A DNA stretch of 64,000 bases from an uncultured Gammaproteobacteria bacterium. Its GTDB lineage: Bacteria > Patescibacteriota > Microgenomatia > UBA12405 > JAHJSD01. Positions 6,517 to 50,352 of the stretch are shown piece by piece; positions within the stretch are counted from its first letter, which is position 1, and each line of letters starts with the position of its first letter. Below the pieces are notes generated by a model that was not told where the DNA came from, made no database searches, and was given only the letters and a program-made list of their open reading frames with translations. Where the stretch lies: positions 2,251-66,250 of the forward strand of contig CAYRYE010000002.1 in NCBI GenBank assembly GCA_964428655.1. Direction: 5' to 3'. Both the position numbers and the translations under genes were made by a program.

Positions 6517-7349
6517 TTGAAAATTGAGAATTGAAAATTGAAAATTTCCAGCATCTTTTCTCCCCAAAACCAACTAACAAAAGTCGCTAAAACTAAAAAC
6601 GGACCAAAGGCGATTTGCTGGCCAAATTTCTTTTTTTTCAACAAAATCAGTATGACACCCAAAACAGCCCCAGTCAAGAAAGCAAGATAAAAGCCCAAAA
6701 CAGCTTTGGGAAATCCTAAGAAAAACCCTATGAAAAAGGAAAACTTGACATCCCCTAATCCCATACCTCGACCCCTAGTAATTAAATGTAAAAAAAGAAA
6801 AAAAGCGGCCGATACCAAGCCGGTTAACAAATAATTTCCCCAAATTCCTCCGAGGTGAAGAAAAAAAGTCAAAACGATTAACCCTCCCACTGCCCAATCA
6901 GGAATAATTTGGTAATGGAGATCAAAAAGAAAAACAGCAATCAAGATAGTAGATAATAGATAGTAGATAATAGATAATAAAATATTGGTGGATGAAATGG
7001 CAAATTTCCACGTTAATAAATAAACAACTCCCGTTCCCAACTCCACCAGCAAATACTCCCAGGGGATAGGGGAATGACAAGTGCGGCAACGACCGCGAAG
7101 CAACAAGAAAGAAACAATCGGAATGTTTTCCCACCATTTCAATTGCTGACCGCAATGGTCACACAGTGATCTCCCCCTTAGCCAATCTAATTTTTTTTGA
7201 CTCTTTTTATCACCTTGCCCTGAACCGCGCTTCAGGGACCGCCAAACCACAACATTCAAAAAGCTGCCCACCGCAGTACCTAAACCAAAGACTAAAGCCC
7301 TAAATAAAAGTACCATCTCTAAAACAACTCGGGCACACAAATCATACAC
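6513..7349 (-). CDS. pilD: prepilin peptidase (A24 family, PilD-like)
   Basis: N-terminal Zn knuckle 'CDHCGQQL...CRTCHSPI'. Catalytic-Asp motif 'GMGLGDVKF'. Multi-TM protein. Contains an internal 14-nt tandem duplication at 6944-6971. Confidence 0.8.
   Translation of the reverse strand: MYDLCARVVLEMVLLFRALVFGLGTAVGSFLNVVVWRSLKRGSGQGDKKSQKKLDWLRGRSLCDHCGQQLKWWENIPIVSFLLLRGRCRTCHSPIPWEYLLVELGTGVVYLLTWKFAISSTNILLSIIYYLLSTILIAVFLFDLHYQIIPDWAVGGLIVLTFFLHLGGIWGNYLLTGLVSAAFFLFLHLITRGRGMGLGDVKFSFFIGFFLGFPKAVLGFYLAFLTGAVLGVILILLKKKKFGQQIAFGPFLVLATFVSWFWGEKMLEIFNFQFSIFK
6517..6544 (-). repeat. heptanucleotide tandem repeat (TTGAAAA/TTGAGAA)x4 in the last codons of pilD, abutting the start of the next pilin
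   Basis: Direct reading. Encodes '...FNFQFSIFK*' of PilD. Confidence 0.75.
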
Positions 7350-7900
7350 CGCCCCTCAGTAAACGGAGGAGGACAAGCTATCGGGGGGTTATTGTAACCA
7401 CCACCAGCATCTTTCGCTTCAGCACTTCCAGTGGCCACCTTATTAGTATTAGCTTTGGGTTCGTAACAAACATAAGTTGACTGCTCCGTACTATTATAAA
7501 TAACGTGTAGCCTATCAATATCGTCCGATCCACTGGCAAATTGTTCTTTTTTTCTAAAGGACGATTTTAATTCTCCGGTCGTTATTAATTCTCCACTGGT
7601 TGCACAAGTAGCATCACCGCAGACACCGGAAAGAACCGCCTCGCCCACATCATCATAATCTTCAGTTCCATCTCCCCAGGAATAGTCCTGGTTAGAAGCG
7701 TAATATCTTTCAACCGCCGCTAATAATTCAGCCGCGTCGTTTTTAAATCTGGAATCTCTAGCCTTATTAATTTGCTCAATTGGATTCAAAGTAGCTATTA
7801 AGGCTGCTGCCAAAATACCAATCAGGGCAATAACAATCAATAACTCAACTAATGTGAAACCTGATTTTTGATTTTTGATTTTTGATTTTTGATTTTTCAT
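7319..7900 (-). CDS. type IV pilin-like protein (possible major pilin)
   Basis: 'KSGFTLVELLIVIALIGILAAA'. Strong RBS AGGAGGTG 5 nt upstream of the ATG at 7900. Five AAATCAA heptamer repeats immediately after the ATG. Confidence 0.7.
   Translation of the reverse strand: MKNQKSKIKNQKSGFTLVELLIVIALIGILAAALIATLNPIEQINKARDSRFKNDAAELLAAVERYYASNQDYSWGDGTEDYDDVGEAVLSGVCGDATCATSGELITTGELKSSFRKKEQFASGSDDIDRLHVIYNSTEQSTYVCYEPKANTNKVATGSAEAKDAGGGYNNPPIACPPPFTEGRCMICVPELF
7861..7897 (-). repeat. perfect heptanucleotide tandem repeat (TTGATTT)x5 on the plus strand, (AAATCAA)n in the coding frame of the pilin
   Basis: Direct reading of the sequence. The repeats lie at codons 2-13 of the pilin gene. The unit length is not a multiple of 3. 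Confidence 0.85.
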
Positions 7901-17776: not shown

Positions 17777-17847
17777 GGGCTTGTAGGTAAATGGCATACC
17801 ACTCCGGTCGCATCGGAGAATTCCGGGTTCAACTCCCGGCAAGTCCA
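17777..17847 (+). tRNA. tRNA-Ala (anticodon CGC)
   Basis: Hand-folded cloverleaf. Acceptor GGGCTTG/CAAGTCC with the G3:U70 Ala identity pair. D-stem GGTA/TACC. Anticodon loop GTCGCAT. T-arm CCGGG-TTCAACT-CCCGG. Discriminator A. CCA not encoded. Confidence 0.7.
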
Positions 17848-17851
17848 CACC

Positions 17852-21286: not shown

Positions 21287-21474
21287 TTCTTATGCTTGAA
21301 CAACCAAAATTCGATGGCGCGCCTTTGGTACACCTGGAAAATGTATTGCTTTTGATATCCAAGTGAAGTTTATGTGAAAAGAAATAAATTATGATTCGGG
21401 CATTCCACTTTAAAACAATTTCTTGCTAAATTAAGCTTAAATACTATATACTACATATCAAATCCCAAGAAGAA

Positions 21475-21560
21475 CCAGGGGTGGCGGAGTGGTCAAACGC
21501 ACGAGTCTGTAAAACTCGCGGGTTATCCCTACGTAGGTTCGAATCCTACCCCCTGGACCA
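21475..21560 (+). tRNA. tRNA-Tyr (anticodon GTA), class II with long variable arm, C1:G72 acceptor pair, CCA encoded
   Basis: Hand-fold. Acceptor CCAGGGG/CCCCTGG. Anticodon stem CGAGT/ACTCG with loop CTGTAAA. Variable arm of about 14 nt. T-arm GTAGG-TTCGAAT-CCTAC. 3' end ACCA. Confidence 0.7.
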
Positions 21561-23189: not shown

Positions 23190-24152
23190 ATGTCATCAAA
23201 ACACAAAACAATTCTCACTGATCAAATAAGAAAAATGGCTCAGGAGACTATTGAAATGTCTAAAGACTTACTTACGATTGACGTTAACCTAATAGAGAAA
23301 GTTCTTGTTGATGAACTACTGACTTTTCAAAAAAAAGCAGGAGATAATTCGGACGCATTTGCTAAAAATGACCTAAATCTAAAAACAGAGTTGGGACTTC
23401 AAGTTTTTTTTAACATCGTTAACTTTTGTTTCAAGGACCCACTTACTGGTAAAGAATATCGGTACATTTCACAAAATGGCAACATTATTAAAAGATCCAC
23501 GGGCCTATTTTCCGCTTTGGCAGAATCAGATATTGATTGGAATAATTTGGATGAAGTCTCAAATATCTCTCAGGAGAATTGGAAAAAGCTGGCTCAGTTA
23601 AATAAGGGAAACAATCTTTATTTAAGTGAAGAAAGAGGTGAAAGATTAAGGAATTTTGCCCGCTATTTAATAAGCAAAGGTTACAGAACAATACAGATGT
23701 TTTTAGAGTCTACTGCCTATGACACTGTTTTAATCCTCCAGAACTTGATAGATAGTGGGTATTTTAAAGACGAGTTTTTAAAAAGAGCCCAGGTCACAGT
23801 TCGCAGAATAGATAACATTTTGAAACGCAGAGGTGAAGGTAAAATAGAAAGCGTTGAGACCCTCACTTGTATGGCGGATTACAGGATCCCGCAGGTTTTT
23901 TATAATCTTGGAGTGGTTAAGTTGAATTCTGATTTAAGTCGTAAACTTGAAGCTGAAAAACAAATAGGGTCAAATAGTAGGGAAGAGCTGGCTCTTAGAG
24001 CCGCAGTGGTAACCATTGGCAAACGACTCGCTGAAACTTTAAACATATTTGAATTCGAGGTTGATGGATTGTTGTGGAACATGTCTCAAAAAATGATGAA
24101 AGAAGGGAAATTAACAACTCCGCACATGATTGTAGCTACGGACAAGTATTAA
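23190..24152 (+). CDS. hypothetical protein, tentatively DUF2419 / queuosine-salvage (Qng1)-like
   Basis: Intact 320-aa ORF. Motifs 'FFNIVNFCFKDP' and 'MADYRIPQVF' recalled as resembling Qng1/DUF2419. The naming is unverified. Confidence 0.45.
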   Translation: MSSKHKTILTDQIRKMAQETIEMSKDLLTIDVNLIEKVLVDELLTFQKKAGDNSDAFAKNDLNLKTELGLQVFFNIVNFCFKDPLTGKEYRYISQNGNIIKRSTGLFSALAESDIDWNNLDEVSNISQENWKKLAQLNKGNNLYLSEERGERLRNFARYLISKGYRTIQMFLESTAYDTVLILQNLIDSGYFKDEFLKRAQVTVRRIDNILKRRGEGKIESVETLTCMADYRIPQVFYNLGVVKLNSDLSRKLEAEKQIGSNSREELALRAAVVTIGKRLAETLNIFEFEVDGLLWNMSQKMMKEGKLTTPHMIVATDKY

Positions 24153-30332: not shown

Positions 30333-31997
30333 ATGAAAAAAGTAAAAACATTTGAAAAAATCTCTGAAAAAATCAAAAAGTTGTCAATCCCTTTTGAGGA
30401 AATAAGTTTTACTGATAAGACTGTTTCAACGAGACAGAAAGATACTTCTATTAAGGGAAATTATATTCCTGAAGAAGCAGTTAAAACTATTGTTGTTAAG
30501 ACTAAAAAGGGAATTAAAGCGGTCATTCTTAAAGGAACAAACCAAATTGACCAACTGGCCCTGAAAGCAATTGTTGATAAATGGAGTATTGTTAGCCCTG
30601 AGGTTTTAGAAAAAGAAACCGGTTTTTTACCCGGCTGTGTCTGCCCCCTTGATCTTGACGTGCCAATTTTAATTGACAAATCGGTTTTGGAAATGGAAAA
30701 TTGGAATATGGGCGCAGGTAATATTTACAAAGGAATCGCTATAAAGAAGAACGACGCCCTTAAAATAATTGGTTCTTTCCAAACAGTCGATGTGACCAAA
30801 AAAAGCAAAGTAGAAAAAACTAAAAGCATAAACAATATAGAAGAAAAACTATCTTTAATTACCAGAAACACTGAAGAGGTTTTAACTAAAGAGGATTTAA
30901 AAAACCTAATTACTTCTGGGACAAAACTGAAACACTATATTGGTTTTGAGATCTCGGGCAAAGTGCATTTGGGGACGGGATTGATGTCCATGGGCAAAGT
31001 AGCTGATTTTCTCCGAGCTGGAGTTAAATGCACTCTCTTTTTAGCTGATTTTCACTCTTATTTAAACAATAAATTGGGAAGGAGCTGGGATAATATCAGA
31101 AGGGCAAGCGAGGGTTATTTTAAAGAAGGACTAATTGCCTCCCTGAAGTGCTTTAAGATTGATGTTGAAAAAGAAATTAGGGAAAGTAATTTGCGGTTTG
31201 TGATGGGGGCCGATTTATACAAGAATAATTTAGTCCATTGGGAAACCTTTATGGAAGTAGGAAAACACCTCACCTTGTCCCGAAACTTAAGGTCAATCTC
31301 AATTATGGGTAAGAAAATGGACCGGGACGTAGATATGGCCACTTTGTTTTATCCGCCGCTCCAAGTGGCGGATATTTTCACTCTTGGCGTGAACATCGCT
31401 CATGCGGGCATTGATCAAAGAAAAGCTCATGTGATTGCTAGAGAAGTAGCTAAAAAACTAACCATCAATCCTTTAAAAAATAAAAAAGGAGAGGTAATTG
31501 CTCCGGTAGCAATTCACCATAAGACTATTGCTGGCTTAGAGGGACCAAAAAAAACTGATAAGCAAAAAGGGGATGAATTGGCCACTGATTTAAAAATGAG
31601 TAAGTCAAAACCAGACTCGGCTATATTTGTTCATGATTCACCTAATGAAATCCGCCGAAAAATCACTAAAGCCTTTTGCCCACCCAGAGAAACGGAATTT
31701 AACCCAATTATTAATTGGTCTGAATGTTTAATTTTTTGGGGACAGGCCCGCCTTGACTCGGCGAGACAGGCGGGGTTAGAAATCAAACGGCCAGCGAAAT
31801 TTGGCGGGAATAAAAAATATCAAACAATTAAAGAAATAAAAGAAGATTATAAAAAAGGTAATTTACATCCAGCTGATCTTAAAAATGCAGTTGCCGAGTG
31901 GTTAATCACCAAGCTTGAGCCAGCCAGAAAACACTTTAACAGCGGAAAAGCAAAAAATGGCTTAGATTTTCTAGAAAAAATAACAACTAAAACTTAA
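30333..31997 (+). CDS. tyrS: archaeal/eukaryal-type tyrosyl-tRNA synthetase with N-terminal YbaK/ProX-like deacylase domain (fusion)
   Basis: C-terminal 380 aa collinear with M. jannaschii-type TyrRS ('YIGFEISGKVHLGTGL', 'LFLADFHSYLNNK', 'KMSKSKP', 'IKRPAKFGG...LHPADLKNAVAEWLITKLEP'). N-terminal 170 aa match the YbaK fold ('ETGFLPGCVCPLDLDVPILIDKSVLE...NMGAGNIYKGIAI'). Confidence 0.8.
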   Translation: MKKVKTFEKISEKIKKLSIPFEEISFTDKTVSTRQKDTSIKGNYIPEEAVKTIVVKTKKGIKAVILKGTNQIDQLALKAIVDKWSIVSPEVLEKETGFLPGCVCPLDLDVPILIDKSVLEMENWNMGAGNIYKGIAIKKNDALKIIGSFQTVDVTKKSKVEKTKSINNIEEKLSLITRNTEEVLTKEDLKNLITSGTKLKHYIGFEISGKVHLGTGLMSMGKVADFLRAGVKCTLFLADFHSYLNNKLGRSWDNIRRASEGYFKEGLIASLKCFKIDVEKEIRESNLRFVMGADLYKNNLVHWETFMEVGKHLTLSRNLRSISIMGKKMDRDVDMATLFYPPLQVADIFTLGVNIAHAGIDQRKAHVIAREVAKKLTINPLKNKKGEVIAPVAIHHKTIAGLEGPKKTDKQKGDELATDLKMSKSKPDSAIFVHDSPNEIRRKITKAFCPPRETEFNPIINWSECLIFWGQARLDSARQAGLEIKRPAKFGGNKKYQTIKEIKEDYKKGNLHPADLKNAVAEWLITKLEPARKHFNSGKAKNGLDFLEKITTKT

Positions 31998-44555: not shown

Positions 44556-44640
44556 GCCGTGGTGCTGGAATTGGCAGACAGGCTGGTCTCAAAAACCAGT
44601 GTCCCTTTGGGACATGAGGGTTCGACTCCCTCCCACGGCA
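44556..44640 (+). tRNA. tRNA-Leu (anticodon CAA), class II
   Basis: Hand-fold. Acceptor GCCGTGG/CCACGGC. D-stem CTG/CAG with a GG loop. Anticodon stem CTGGT/ACCAG with loop CTCAAAA. Variable hairpin GTCCC-TTT-GGGAC. T-arm GAGGG-TTCGACT-CCCTC. Discriminator A. Confidence 0.75.
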
Positions 44641-44660
44641 CAGTTGCGGATTTTTCAATC

Positions 44661-48837: not shown

Positions 48838-48911
48838 GGTGGCTGTAGCTCAGTGGTTAGAGCATCTCGCTGTGAACGAGAAGGTCAGGGGTTCAAATCC
48901 CCCCAGCCACC
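48838..48911 (+). tRNA. tRNA-His (anticodon GTG) with genomically encoded G-1
   Basis: Hand-fold. G-1 pairs with C73. Acceptor GTGGCTG/CAGCCAC. D-arm GCTC-AGTGGTTA-GAGC. Anticodon stem TCTCG/CGAGA with loop CTGTGAA. T-loop TTCAAAT. Confidence 0.8.
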
Positions 48912-49029
48912 CTAGAATTGGAGCCAAGCGGCGGAATTAAGTTTAAAAAGTCAGAAAAAATATTTAAAAAAATTATTACTCAATTGCTCAACTAGCCTAT
49001 CCCAATCTGTGATATTATAAAAAGTAAGC

Positions 49030-50352
49030 ATGATTAAAAAATCAAAAAAAATCATCAGTCCGCAAACCCTTAAGGGTTTCAGGGATTTTTATGGCTCTGA
49101 TGCTAGAACTAGAGAATATATAATTAGTGTCTTTAAATCAGTATTCGAAAAATACGGCTACGAACCTTTGGAAACACCGGCTCTGGAATACGCTGAAGTT
49201 CTCTTGGGAAAAAGCGGTGAAGAAATAGATAAATTATCTTATATCTTTAAAGATCCTGGCGGAAGGATAATTGGCCTCAAATACGATATGACTGTTCCTG
49301 CTTGTAGATTTGTGGCCCAAAATTATCAAAAACTAATTTTTCCTTTTAAAAGATATCAAATTCAATTTGCCTGGCGGGCGGAGAAACCTCAAAAGGGTCG
49401 TTTCAGAGAATTTATGCAGTGCGATGCCGATGTCTGGGGAACAGAATCTGTTTTGGTCGACGCTGAATTTATTCAAATGGGGATCGAAGTTACCCAAAAG
49501 CTTGGTTTTAAGAATTTTGTTACCCGAATTAACAATCGAAAAATTATTAACGGCATTCTTCAATATTGCGGCGCTGAAAAAAAACAGTTTTATAATATTT
49601 CCATCTCCGTTGATAAGCTAGAAAAAATTGGTTTGGATGGAGTGGAAAACGAGCTTAAAAAAAGAGATATTAAGGAAAAAATCTCCCAAAAAATTTTAGA
49701 ATTAATCTCTATCGATGGTAATTCCAAAGAAAAACTTAAAATACTTAAAAAGAAATTGAAAGAATACCCTAAAGCAATTGAAGGCATTGAAGAAATAGAA
49801 AAAATATTTTCCTATCTTAAAACTGTTGGGGTTGAAACAAAATATTACAAATATGACCCTTCAATCATTCGAGGTATGGCTTACTACACTGGCCCAATCT
49901 GGGAATTCACTGTTATTGAAGGAGGCGTTGGCTCCATTGGCGGCTGCGGCCGTTATGATAAATTAACTGGCGCCTACACTAATAAAGACATCCCTGCCTC
50001 AGGCGGCTCTTTTGGCATTGAAAGAATCATTGAAGTCATGAAAGATAGAGAAATGATTAGTTTTGACAAAAGCGCTACTAAAGTTCTGGTTACTATTTTT
50101 TCTCCGGAATTGCAGGAACAATCAATCAAGTTGGCTAATAAATTAAGAGGCTCCGGTATTGTCACTGAATTATATTTAGATCCCAAAGTAAAACTGGACA
50201 AGCAGTTGAAATACGCCGATCGGAAGGGAATTCCTTATATCATTATTATCGGCCCGGAGGAAGCAGCTAAAAAGATGGTGGTCATCAAAAATCTTAGCAA
50301 ACGGACACAAAAAACTATTCCTCTTTCTAAAGTTATCCCGGTGTTACAATAG
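49030..50352 (+). CDS. hisS: histidyl-tRNA synthetase
   Basis: Class II motifs: 'RYQIQFAWRAEKPQKGRFREFMQCDADVWG' (motif 2) and 'GGGRYDKL' (motif 3). Confidence 0.9.
   Translation: MIKKSKKIISPQTLKGFRDFYGSDARTREYIISVFKSVFEKYGYEPLETPALEYAEVLLGKSGEEIDKLSYIFKDPGGRIIGLKYDMTVPACRFVAQNYQKLIFPFKRYQIQFAWRAEKPQKGRFREFMQCDADVWGTESVLVDAEFIQMGIEVTQKLGFKNFVTRINNRKIINGILQYCGAEKKQFYNISISVDKLEKIGLDGVENELKKRDIKEKISQKILELISIDGNSKEKLKILKKKLKEYPKAIEGIEEIEKIFSYLKTVGVETKYYKYDPSIIRGMAYYTGPIWEFTVIEGGVGSIGGCGRYDKLTGAYTNKDIPASGGSFGIERIIEVMKDREMISFDKSATKVLVTIFSPELQEQSIKLANKLRGSGIVTELYLDPKVKLDKQLKYADRKGIPYIIIIGPEEAAKKMVVIKNLSKRTQKTIPLSKVIPVLQ

Follow-up and report, generated by a model that had tools for sequence, protein, structure and literature searches.

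A 64-kb stretch of DNA (the whole stretch that was analyzed, called the window here) carries a tRNA-Tyr(GUA) gene, at 21475–21560 on the forward strand, that combines a class II body of bacterial type with C1:G72, the tyrosine identity pair of archaea and eukaryotes, and the same window encodes an archaeal-type tyrosyl-tRNA synthetase (TyrRS). We consider it likely, with a probability of roughly 0.85, that this is a functional tRNA-Tyr of the candidate phyla radiation (CPR; Patescibacteria), probably from a Microgenomates, Shapirobacteria-like organism, and that it is charged by the archaeal-type enzyme encoded downstream. The arrangement itself has been known since 2017, when Mukai, Reynolds, Crnkovic, and Soll (Life 2017;7:8; PMC5370408) described CPR bacteria with an archaeal-type TyrRS and a C1-G72 tRNATyr in which the variable arm (V-arm) is often retained; because they published the same CPR system, the present case is a correct rediscovery and one more example. 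A preliminary description of the locus missed that publication, and it also missed an extra N-terminal YbaK-like domain of the TyrRS, an editing-type domain that stands out as the main novelty of the neighborhood.

The tRNA-Tyr gene and its presumed partner enzyme

ARAGORN placed the gene at exactly 21475..21560 (+; 86 nt), and the Rfam model RF00005 matched 21475..21557 over its full length (1–71) with 61.3 bits against a gathering threshold of 29 (E = 7.6e-11), giving the same 5′ end. The 5′ strand of the acceptor is CCAGGGG (21475..21481, with C21475 as position 1), and the 3′ side (21550..21557) consists of CCCCTGG, with G21556 as G72, followed by the discriminator A73 at 21557. Read directly from the sequence, the stem starts with C1:G72, C2:G71, and A3:U70 and continues with four G:C pairs; the Rfam alignment pairs C21475 with G21556 and flags no non-canonical pair in the tRNA. 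The anticodon GTA (21509..21511, reported by ARAGORN at position 35) lies in the loop CTGTAAA (21507–21513), and the D-arm reads GCGG-AGTGGTCAA-ACGC, a 3-bp stem plus G13-A22 in the style of class II tRNAs. The variable region, CGGGTTATCCCTAC, is a 14-nt insertion in the Rfam alignment (21519..21532) with a stem of GGG (21520–21522) and CCC (21527–21529) around the loop TTAT, and the 3′ CCA is encoded at 21558–21560, after A73. The acceptor strands with C1:G72, the variable arm of about 14 nt, and the encoded CCA had all been proposed in the preliminary description and are borne out. It had also named two outcomes that would speak against it, and neither occurs: a 5′ end shifted by one base, which would give G1:C72, was rejected because ARAGORN and Rfam both put position 1 at C21475, and another isotype for 21475–21560 was rejected because neither ARAGORN nor the Rfam model gives one. 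A single-sequence minimum-free-energy fold (z = −2.08) mispaired the D-arm; it is a weak test to which we gave no weight, and the evidence that counts comes from the covariance model together with the alignment of the family.

By sequence and covariance-model alignment, the tRNA carries the archaeal/eukaryal tyrosine identity set of C1:G72, A73, and G34-U35-A36, and it has neither the canonical bacterial G1:C72 nor the 4–5 nt variable region of an archaeal class I tRNA. By sequence comparison, its body is bacterial. It is 70% identical to, and collinear with, Escherichia coli tyrT, 62% identical with many gaps to Methanocaldococcus jannaschii tRNATyr, and 59% identical to the window's own tRNA-Leu. 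With E. coli tyrT it shares the class II cloverleaf, the 3-bp D-stem with G13-A22, the loop CUGUAAA, A73, and the encoded CCA, and it differs at 1:72 and 2:71, which are G:C in tyrT and C:G here. The tRNA of the M. jannaschii pair (1j1u), in contrast, shares C1:G72, C2:G71, A73, and G34-U35-A36 with the window's tRNA, but archaeal tRNATyr belongs to class I, and its variable region has 5 nt in place of the 14-nt arm. The contention that bacterial TyrRS recognizes G1:C72, on which the preliminary description had leaned, is somewhat overstated: a 2023 review of tRNA identity tabulates the bacterial tyrosine determinants as A73, G34, and U35, and mentions G1-C72 in its text.

The archaeal-type TyrRS that had been reported from the same window is indeed present, as an open reading frame (ORF) at 30333–31997 (+; 554 aa), 8.8 kb downstream of the tRNA-Tyr on the same strand. 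Its body (aa 168–554; 30834..31997) comprises the catalytic and anticodon-binding domains, with the class Ic synthetase core matching PF00579 in Pfam. Against NF006330, the NCBIfam model for archaeal-type TyrRS, the enzyme scored 374 bits (cut-off 220), whereas its 97 bits against the bacterial tyrS model fell under the cut-off of 113.8. In a PDB search, the Pyrococcus horikoshii enzyme ranked best (2cyc, 1e-108), followed by the archaeal structures 7fg6, 2cya, and 2cyb, while the bacterial Thermus thermophilus TyrRS reached merely 9e-5. The closest named relatives come from Candidatus Shapirobacteria and the "Patescibacteria group". A Pfam domain search detected no S4-like C-terminal domain in the window's TyrRS; this is the module with which bacterial TyrRS binds the long arm, and the archaeal-type partner found here differs from the bacterial enzyme in lacking it.

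The window's enzyme is homologous to M. jannaschii TyrRS (33% identity by BLASTP; the reference sequence was confirmed to be identical to 1j1u_A), although the latter has no counterpart of the extra 165-aa N-terminal domain. On the anticodon side we take Asp286 of the M. jannaschii complex to read G34, with Phe261 and His283 stacking on that base; the corresponding residues in the BLASTP alignment are D515, F490, and H512, and those of the tyrosine pocket, Y32 and D158, correspond to Y202 and D347. At the acceptor end, Tsunoda et al. (2007; PMC1934993) have C1 read by Arg174 and, via water, by Arg132, and G72 read by Lys175; the window's enzyme keeps these residues as R363, R320, and K364, respectively. 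As far as alignment can indicate, the C1:G72 pair would thus suit the enzyme encoded in the window, as had been proposed.

Relatives in other genomes

We scanned the GTDB collection, with one genome per species, for a pattern consisting of a GUA anticodon loop, a long variable region, a T-loop, and G72-A73-CCA, leaving position 1 unspecified, and obtained at least 119 loci. ARAGORN called a tRNA-Tyr in 113 of the 119 listed loci and 111 of these 113 carry C at position 1; with that position left free, G72 thus nearly always comes together with C1. At least about 28 of the matches listed are CPR-like, with the acceptor CCAGGGG, CCAGAGG, or CCGGAG, and they come from metagenome-assembled genomes (MAGs) labeled Microgenomates, Roizmanbacteria, Paceibacterota, Peregrinibacteria, Saccharibacteria, or Patescibacteria; the closest CPR-like gene among the matches listed is 91% identical to that of the window. 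Whether other CPR tRNA-Tyr genes share C1:G72, a check suggested in the preliminary description, is thereby answered in the affirmative. An RNAalifold alignment of 25 CPR-like tRNA-Tyr, two Clostridia sequences, and E. coli tyrT gave a clean class II cloverleaf with compensatory changes at 20 of 23 pairs, the variable-arm stem included (one of its pairs is GC in 17 sequences and CG in 11), and throughout the alignment the D-loop and the arm have the geometry of tRNA-Tyr.

At four CPR loci an unfused archaeal-type TyrRS gene stands 36–260 nt downstream of a C1:G72 tRNA-Tyr on the same strand (L039, 1103–2567; L007, 376–1671; L027, 2333–3534; L090, 7197–7996), and these pairs look like compact tRNA-synthetase cassettes, an arrangement that Mukai et al. 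did not report for tyrosine; at L080, an archaeal-type TyrRS lies 2.5 kb from the tRNA-Tyr. The long arm can be lost, since at L122 a tRNA-Tyr of only 73 nt (7304–7376), with C1:G72, A73, and a variable region of 5 nt, and lacking CCA, sits 2.6 kb upstream of a fused TyrRS (P0002) that is 56% identical to the window's. In this close relative of the window's system, the arm has been lost or the tRNA has been replaced. Mukai et al. likewise found one genome that holds both arm-containing and arm-lacking forms of tRNATyr (PMC5370408).

The combination of C1:G72 with a long arm is not confined to CPR bacteria, because it is also present in the Anaerovoracaceae (Clostridiales Family XIII), which contribute 72 of the 113 listed tRNA-Tyr genes (L001, L009, L012, L036, L045, L059, L084, L110, and about 60 other loci). 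Their acceptor reads CGAGGG(A/G/T), giving C1:G72; A73 and a long arm are present as well, and the genes stand in ordinary tRNA clusters. Their carriers include the cultured Emergencia timonensis, [Eubacterium] infirmum, Mogibacterium kristiansenii, Lentihominibacter faecis, Eubacterium pyruvativorans, Alterileibacterium massiliense, and Brotomerdimonas butyrica. Neither tblastn with the window's enzyme nor a scan of the 119 loci for HIGH/KMSKS motifs, covering every ORF of 250 aa or more, revealed a TyrRS beside the Anaerovoracaceae genes within the 8-kb loci. A C1:G72 long-arm tRNA-Tyr in this family appears to be undescribed; the literature searched held no description of a C1-G72 tRNATyr in Clostridia, although absence there is no proof.

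Two further groups of matches were noted in passing. Several MAGs labeled "uncultured Gammaproteobacteria" carry a CPR-type tRNA-Tyr (L007, which has the adjacent archaeal-type TyrRS, L089, L107, L109, and L112; L109 comes from a chromosome of ~0.94 Mb and L112 from a contig of ~0.80 Mb), and these labels look wrong. Mycobacteria (Mycobacterium/Mycolicibacterium; L005, L023, L049) have a C1:G72 long-arm tRNA-Tyr with an unusual D-arm, which at L005 is one of 18 tRNA genes packed into 8 kb, an array that looks prophage-like.

The N-terminal domain of the TyrRS

Residues 1–155 of the window's TyrRS (30333..30797, +) form a domain of the YbaK/INS superfamily (tRNA_edit; PF04073, 8e-14), which is joined to the synthetase body by a Lys-rich, low-confidence linker (aa ~156–170) that is disordered in the AlphaFold model. 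The AlphaFold (AF2) model of the domain, built on 12 fusion homologues, has a mean predicted local distance difference test (pLDDT) score of 88.5, and all 37 of its Foldseek matches in the PDB at E ≤ 1e-3 are YbaK, ProX/ProXp, or ProRS-INS structures, with YbaK 1dbx matched at 1e-11 and a template-modeling (TM) score of about 0.7–0.8. Aligned to Haemophilus influenzae YbaK (1dbu), K51 falls on K46, which we take to be the conserved catalytic-site Lys, and the PGCVCP motif falls on the G-x-x-x-P loop; K51, G101, C104, and P105 are invariant in 12 of 12 fusion homologues. The domain therefore has the fold, the conserved Lys, and the loop of the YbaK/ProXp/ProRS-INS proteins, but domains of this type are fused or operon-linked to TyrRS and do not serve ProRS, and the window's domain stays under the trusted cut-offs of the named NCBIfam subfamilies (34.6 vs 153 bits for TIGR00011, YbaK_EbsC; 33 vs 558 bits for ProRS).

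When 1.84 billion representative proteins were searched with phmmer, 131 relatives of the domain emerged at E ≤ 1e-3, most of them free-standing proteins of ~155 aa, and fusions to archaeal-type TyrRS form at least 12 clusters. Bacterial-type TyrRS can carry it as well: P0124 (L126, 10001–12478) combines an INS-like domain (43% identity) with a PheRS-beta B3/4 editing domain and a bacterial-type TyrRS, and in the fragment P0128 an INS-like domain is joined to a bacterial-type TyrRS. For more distant INS-like domains, the fusion partner is a bacterial-type TrpRS (P0203, P0212, and P0225, the last with two copies) or GatB (P0217). Linkage without fusion is seen in a WWE3 bacterium (L132, GCA_014729135.1; 2817–5601), where a C1:G72 long-arm tRNA-Tyr is followed, in this order, by genes for a HisC-like aminotransferase, an INS-like protein, and an archaeal-type TyrRS, the last two overlapping stop on start; at L135 (176–917), where a TyrRS fragment directly follows the INS-like gene; and on an archaeal contig (L133, 4001–8118), where the INS-like gene lies 2.5 kb upstream of the TyrRS within a cluster of synthetase genes. 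The subfamily thus looks rare and repeatedly linked to TyrRS genes, and its fusion to TyrRS appears to be undescribed: no YbaK/INS-TyrRS fusion was found in the literature searched, although absence there is no proof, and the only fusion in the system of Mukai et al. is an N-terminal PheRS-beta B2 (OB-fold) domain. We also observed P0038, an archaeal-type TyrRS whose N terminus bears a tRNA_bind (PF01588) OB-fold domain, and Lys/Asp-type class II synthetases beside fusion genes (L122, 2249–4105; L124, 5299–7191) with a tRNA_bind domain at the C terminus; these match the theme of appended domains set out in 2017.

A free-standing homologue, P0123, overlaps the stop codon of a gene for an amino-acid racemase (TIGR00035, 161 bits) at L127 (5315–6468), L128 (4744–5897), and L129 (298–1451), on what looks like a conjugative element, and this translational coupling hints at a link to D-amino acids. 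TyrRS is classically weak at excluding D-tyrosine. Because of this weakness and the racemase coupling, we raise the tentative possibility, which we hold at somewhat less than even odds, that the window's enzyme is the first TyrRS to be described with a built-in editing module, the domain acting in cis as a deacylase for D-Tyr-tRNATyr or other mis-acylated tRNATyr. Bacterial ProXp-ala reads G72 and A73 on tRNAPro (PMC11295145), the same acceptor end that the window's tRNATyr presents, and by analogy the N-terminal domain might read that end in the same way. Our literature search for a D-aminoacyl-tRNA deacylase in CPR bacteria returned nothing relevant, although absence there is no proof.

Neighborhood, alternative explanations, and significance

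The window, with 39% G+C, holds bacterial housekeeping genes (GyrA, GyrB, DnaB, DnaX/DNA polymerase III subunits, SSB, and a release factor), type IV pilus genes, and genes for HisRS, CysRS, and MetRS, and an ABC/MacB exporter gene stands just upstream of the tRNA-Tyr. ARAGORN found four tRNA genes in it, of which one is tRNA-Tyr, the others being tRNA-Ala (17777–17848), tRNA-Leu (44556–44641), and tRNA-His (48839–48912); there is one TyrRS. Only the tRNA-Tyr has an encoded 3′ CCA, the Ala, Leu, and His genes being followed by CAC, CAG, and CTA. The tRNA-His has the normal bacterial form, with an encoded G-1 opposite C73, and the HisRS gene starts 118 nt after it (48839–50352 for the pair), a second tRNA-synthetase adjacency in the window. 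Queuosine occurs at position 34 of four tRNAs, tRNA-Tyr(GUA) among them, and 1.6 kb downstream of the tRNA-Tyr the window has a gene for a queuosine-salvage protein (23190–24152; PF10343, 6e-25). A promoter-like TTGCTA-18-TATACT (21423..21452, +) ends 22 nt before the tRNA; although suitably placed, it lacks statistical significance (one site against 2.0 ± 1.5 expected in shuffles) and was rejected as chance-level.

We favor the explanation that the tRNA body descends from a bacterial class II tRNA-Tyr whose acceptor-stem top has switched to the archaeal/eukaryal tyrosine set of C1:G72, C2:G71, and A73, and that this switch followed or accompanied the replacement of the bacterial TyrRS. Charging by the archaeal-type TyrRS would proceed through C1:G72, A73, and the anticodon, with the conserved Arg/Arg/Lys reading C1:G72 and A73 and the conserved Asp reading G34. 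Because the window's TyrRS has no S4-like domain, the long arm would most likely go unread, as a dispensable evolutionary leftover. Mukai et al. drew the same conclusion of a bacterial tRNATyr with a switched identity pair, and Microgenomates (OP11) are among the phyla that they listed; the window shares with their system the bacterial CPR context, the archaeal-type TyrRS without an S4-like domain, and C1-G72 with the V-arm kept. The gene boundaries, the fold, the 1:72 pair, the type of the enzyme, the conservation of its contact residues, and the recurrence in CPR genomes are established. Three points weigh against the explanation as a whole or in part. No aminoacylation data on such pairs were found in the literature searched, the work of Mukai et al. 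being purely bioinformatic; our view covers 64 kb, and a second, bacterial-type TyrRS or a G1:C72 tRNA-Tyr could lie elsewhere; and the long arm is well conserved, its stem covarying in many CPR lineages, which speaks against a pure relic. Because the stem is kept by compensatory changes, the arm may still be under selection for folding, for modification enzymes, or for discrimination.

This last point leads to the alternative that the arm is still read, for example by the YbaK-like N-terminal domain or by a modification or editing factor, which would make the tRNA a true functional hybrid and not a transitional form. The compensatory changes in about 25 CPR sequences speak for this, as does the conservation of the fused domain on its flexible linker. 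We nonetheless regard it as unlikely: most archaeal-type TyrRSs of CPR bacteria (about 370–390 aa) have no appended domain and their tRNAs are still armed, the fusion homologue P0002 lies 2.6 kb from an arm-less tRNA-Tyr, and YbaK-family domains contact the acceptor end and not the variable arm (PMC11295145).

A different concern is that the tRNA and TyrRS form an extra, orthogonal pair beside a canonical bacterial TyrRS and G1:C72 tRNA-Tyr encoded elsewhere in the genome. Two coexisting tryptophan systems are documented in CPR bacteria, a Beckwithbacteria genome carrying a TrpRS-A/tRNATrp(A73) pair beside a second one (PMC5370408), the cassettes at L039, L007, L027, and L090 look transferable and addable, and 64 kb of the genome is in view. 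CPR genomes are small, however, and rarely keep duplicate synthetase genes, Mukai et al. reported no coexisting tyrosine systems, and the window has a single tRNA-Tyr and a single TyrRS set among housekeeping genes; an extra pair is in our judgment quite improbable.

Cross-contamination between CPR and DPANN bins, of which Mukai et al. warned (PMC5370408), could in principle have produced an artefact, be it a mis-binned or mis-assembled archaeal fragment, a pseudogene, or a shifted 5′ end. An archaeal contaminant is excluded because bacterial genes run through the whole contiguous 64 kb, as in any ordinary piece of a bacterial chromosome, and because the tRNA itself has a bacterial class II body, and with 61 bits, no non-canonical pair, and an agreed 5′ end, the artefact is effectively refuted. 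That LeuRS or SerRS charges this class II, A73 body, features common to bacterial tRNA-Leu, with UAY codons reassigned, is barely credible given the cognate TyrRS with its intact G34-reading Asp515, the 70% identity to E. coli tyrT as against 59% to the window's tRNA-Leu, and a geometry that is tRNA-Tyr-like across the family.

The textbook example of a barrier between kingdoms in tRNA identity is the tyrosine system, which also underlies the orthogonal M. jannaschii pair employed to expand the genetic code. A bacterium on the archaeal rule indicates that this barrier can be crossed by an enzyme swap plus one or two flipped base pairs, and the retained long arm would record the evolutionary route taken. 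Human mitochondria also break the kingdom rule on the tyrosine 1:72 pair and the arm, but there a bacterial-type enzyme is indifferent to 1:72 and the arm was lost, whereas the present system kept the arm and exchanged the enzyme. That the barrier can be crossed was already pointed out in 2017; the window adds an example and no new idea, its tRNA-Tyr being ordinary for CPR bacteria and of modest interest. Two side observations could matter more than the main finding. To our knowledge, the prevailing view is that TyrRS has no proofreading module, and an editing-type domain on a TyrRS, if confirmed in that role, would overturn it. The cultured gut and oral Clostridia that carry a C1:G72 long-arm tRNA-Tyr would, for their part, allow the identity switch to be tested in growable organisms.

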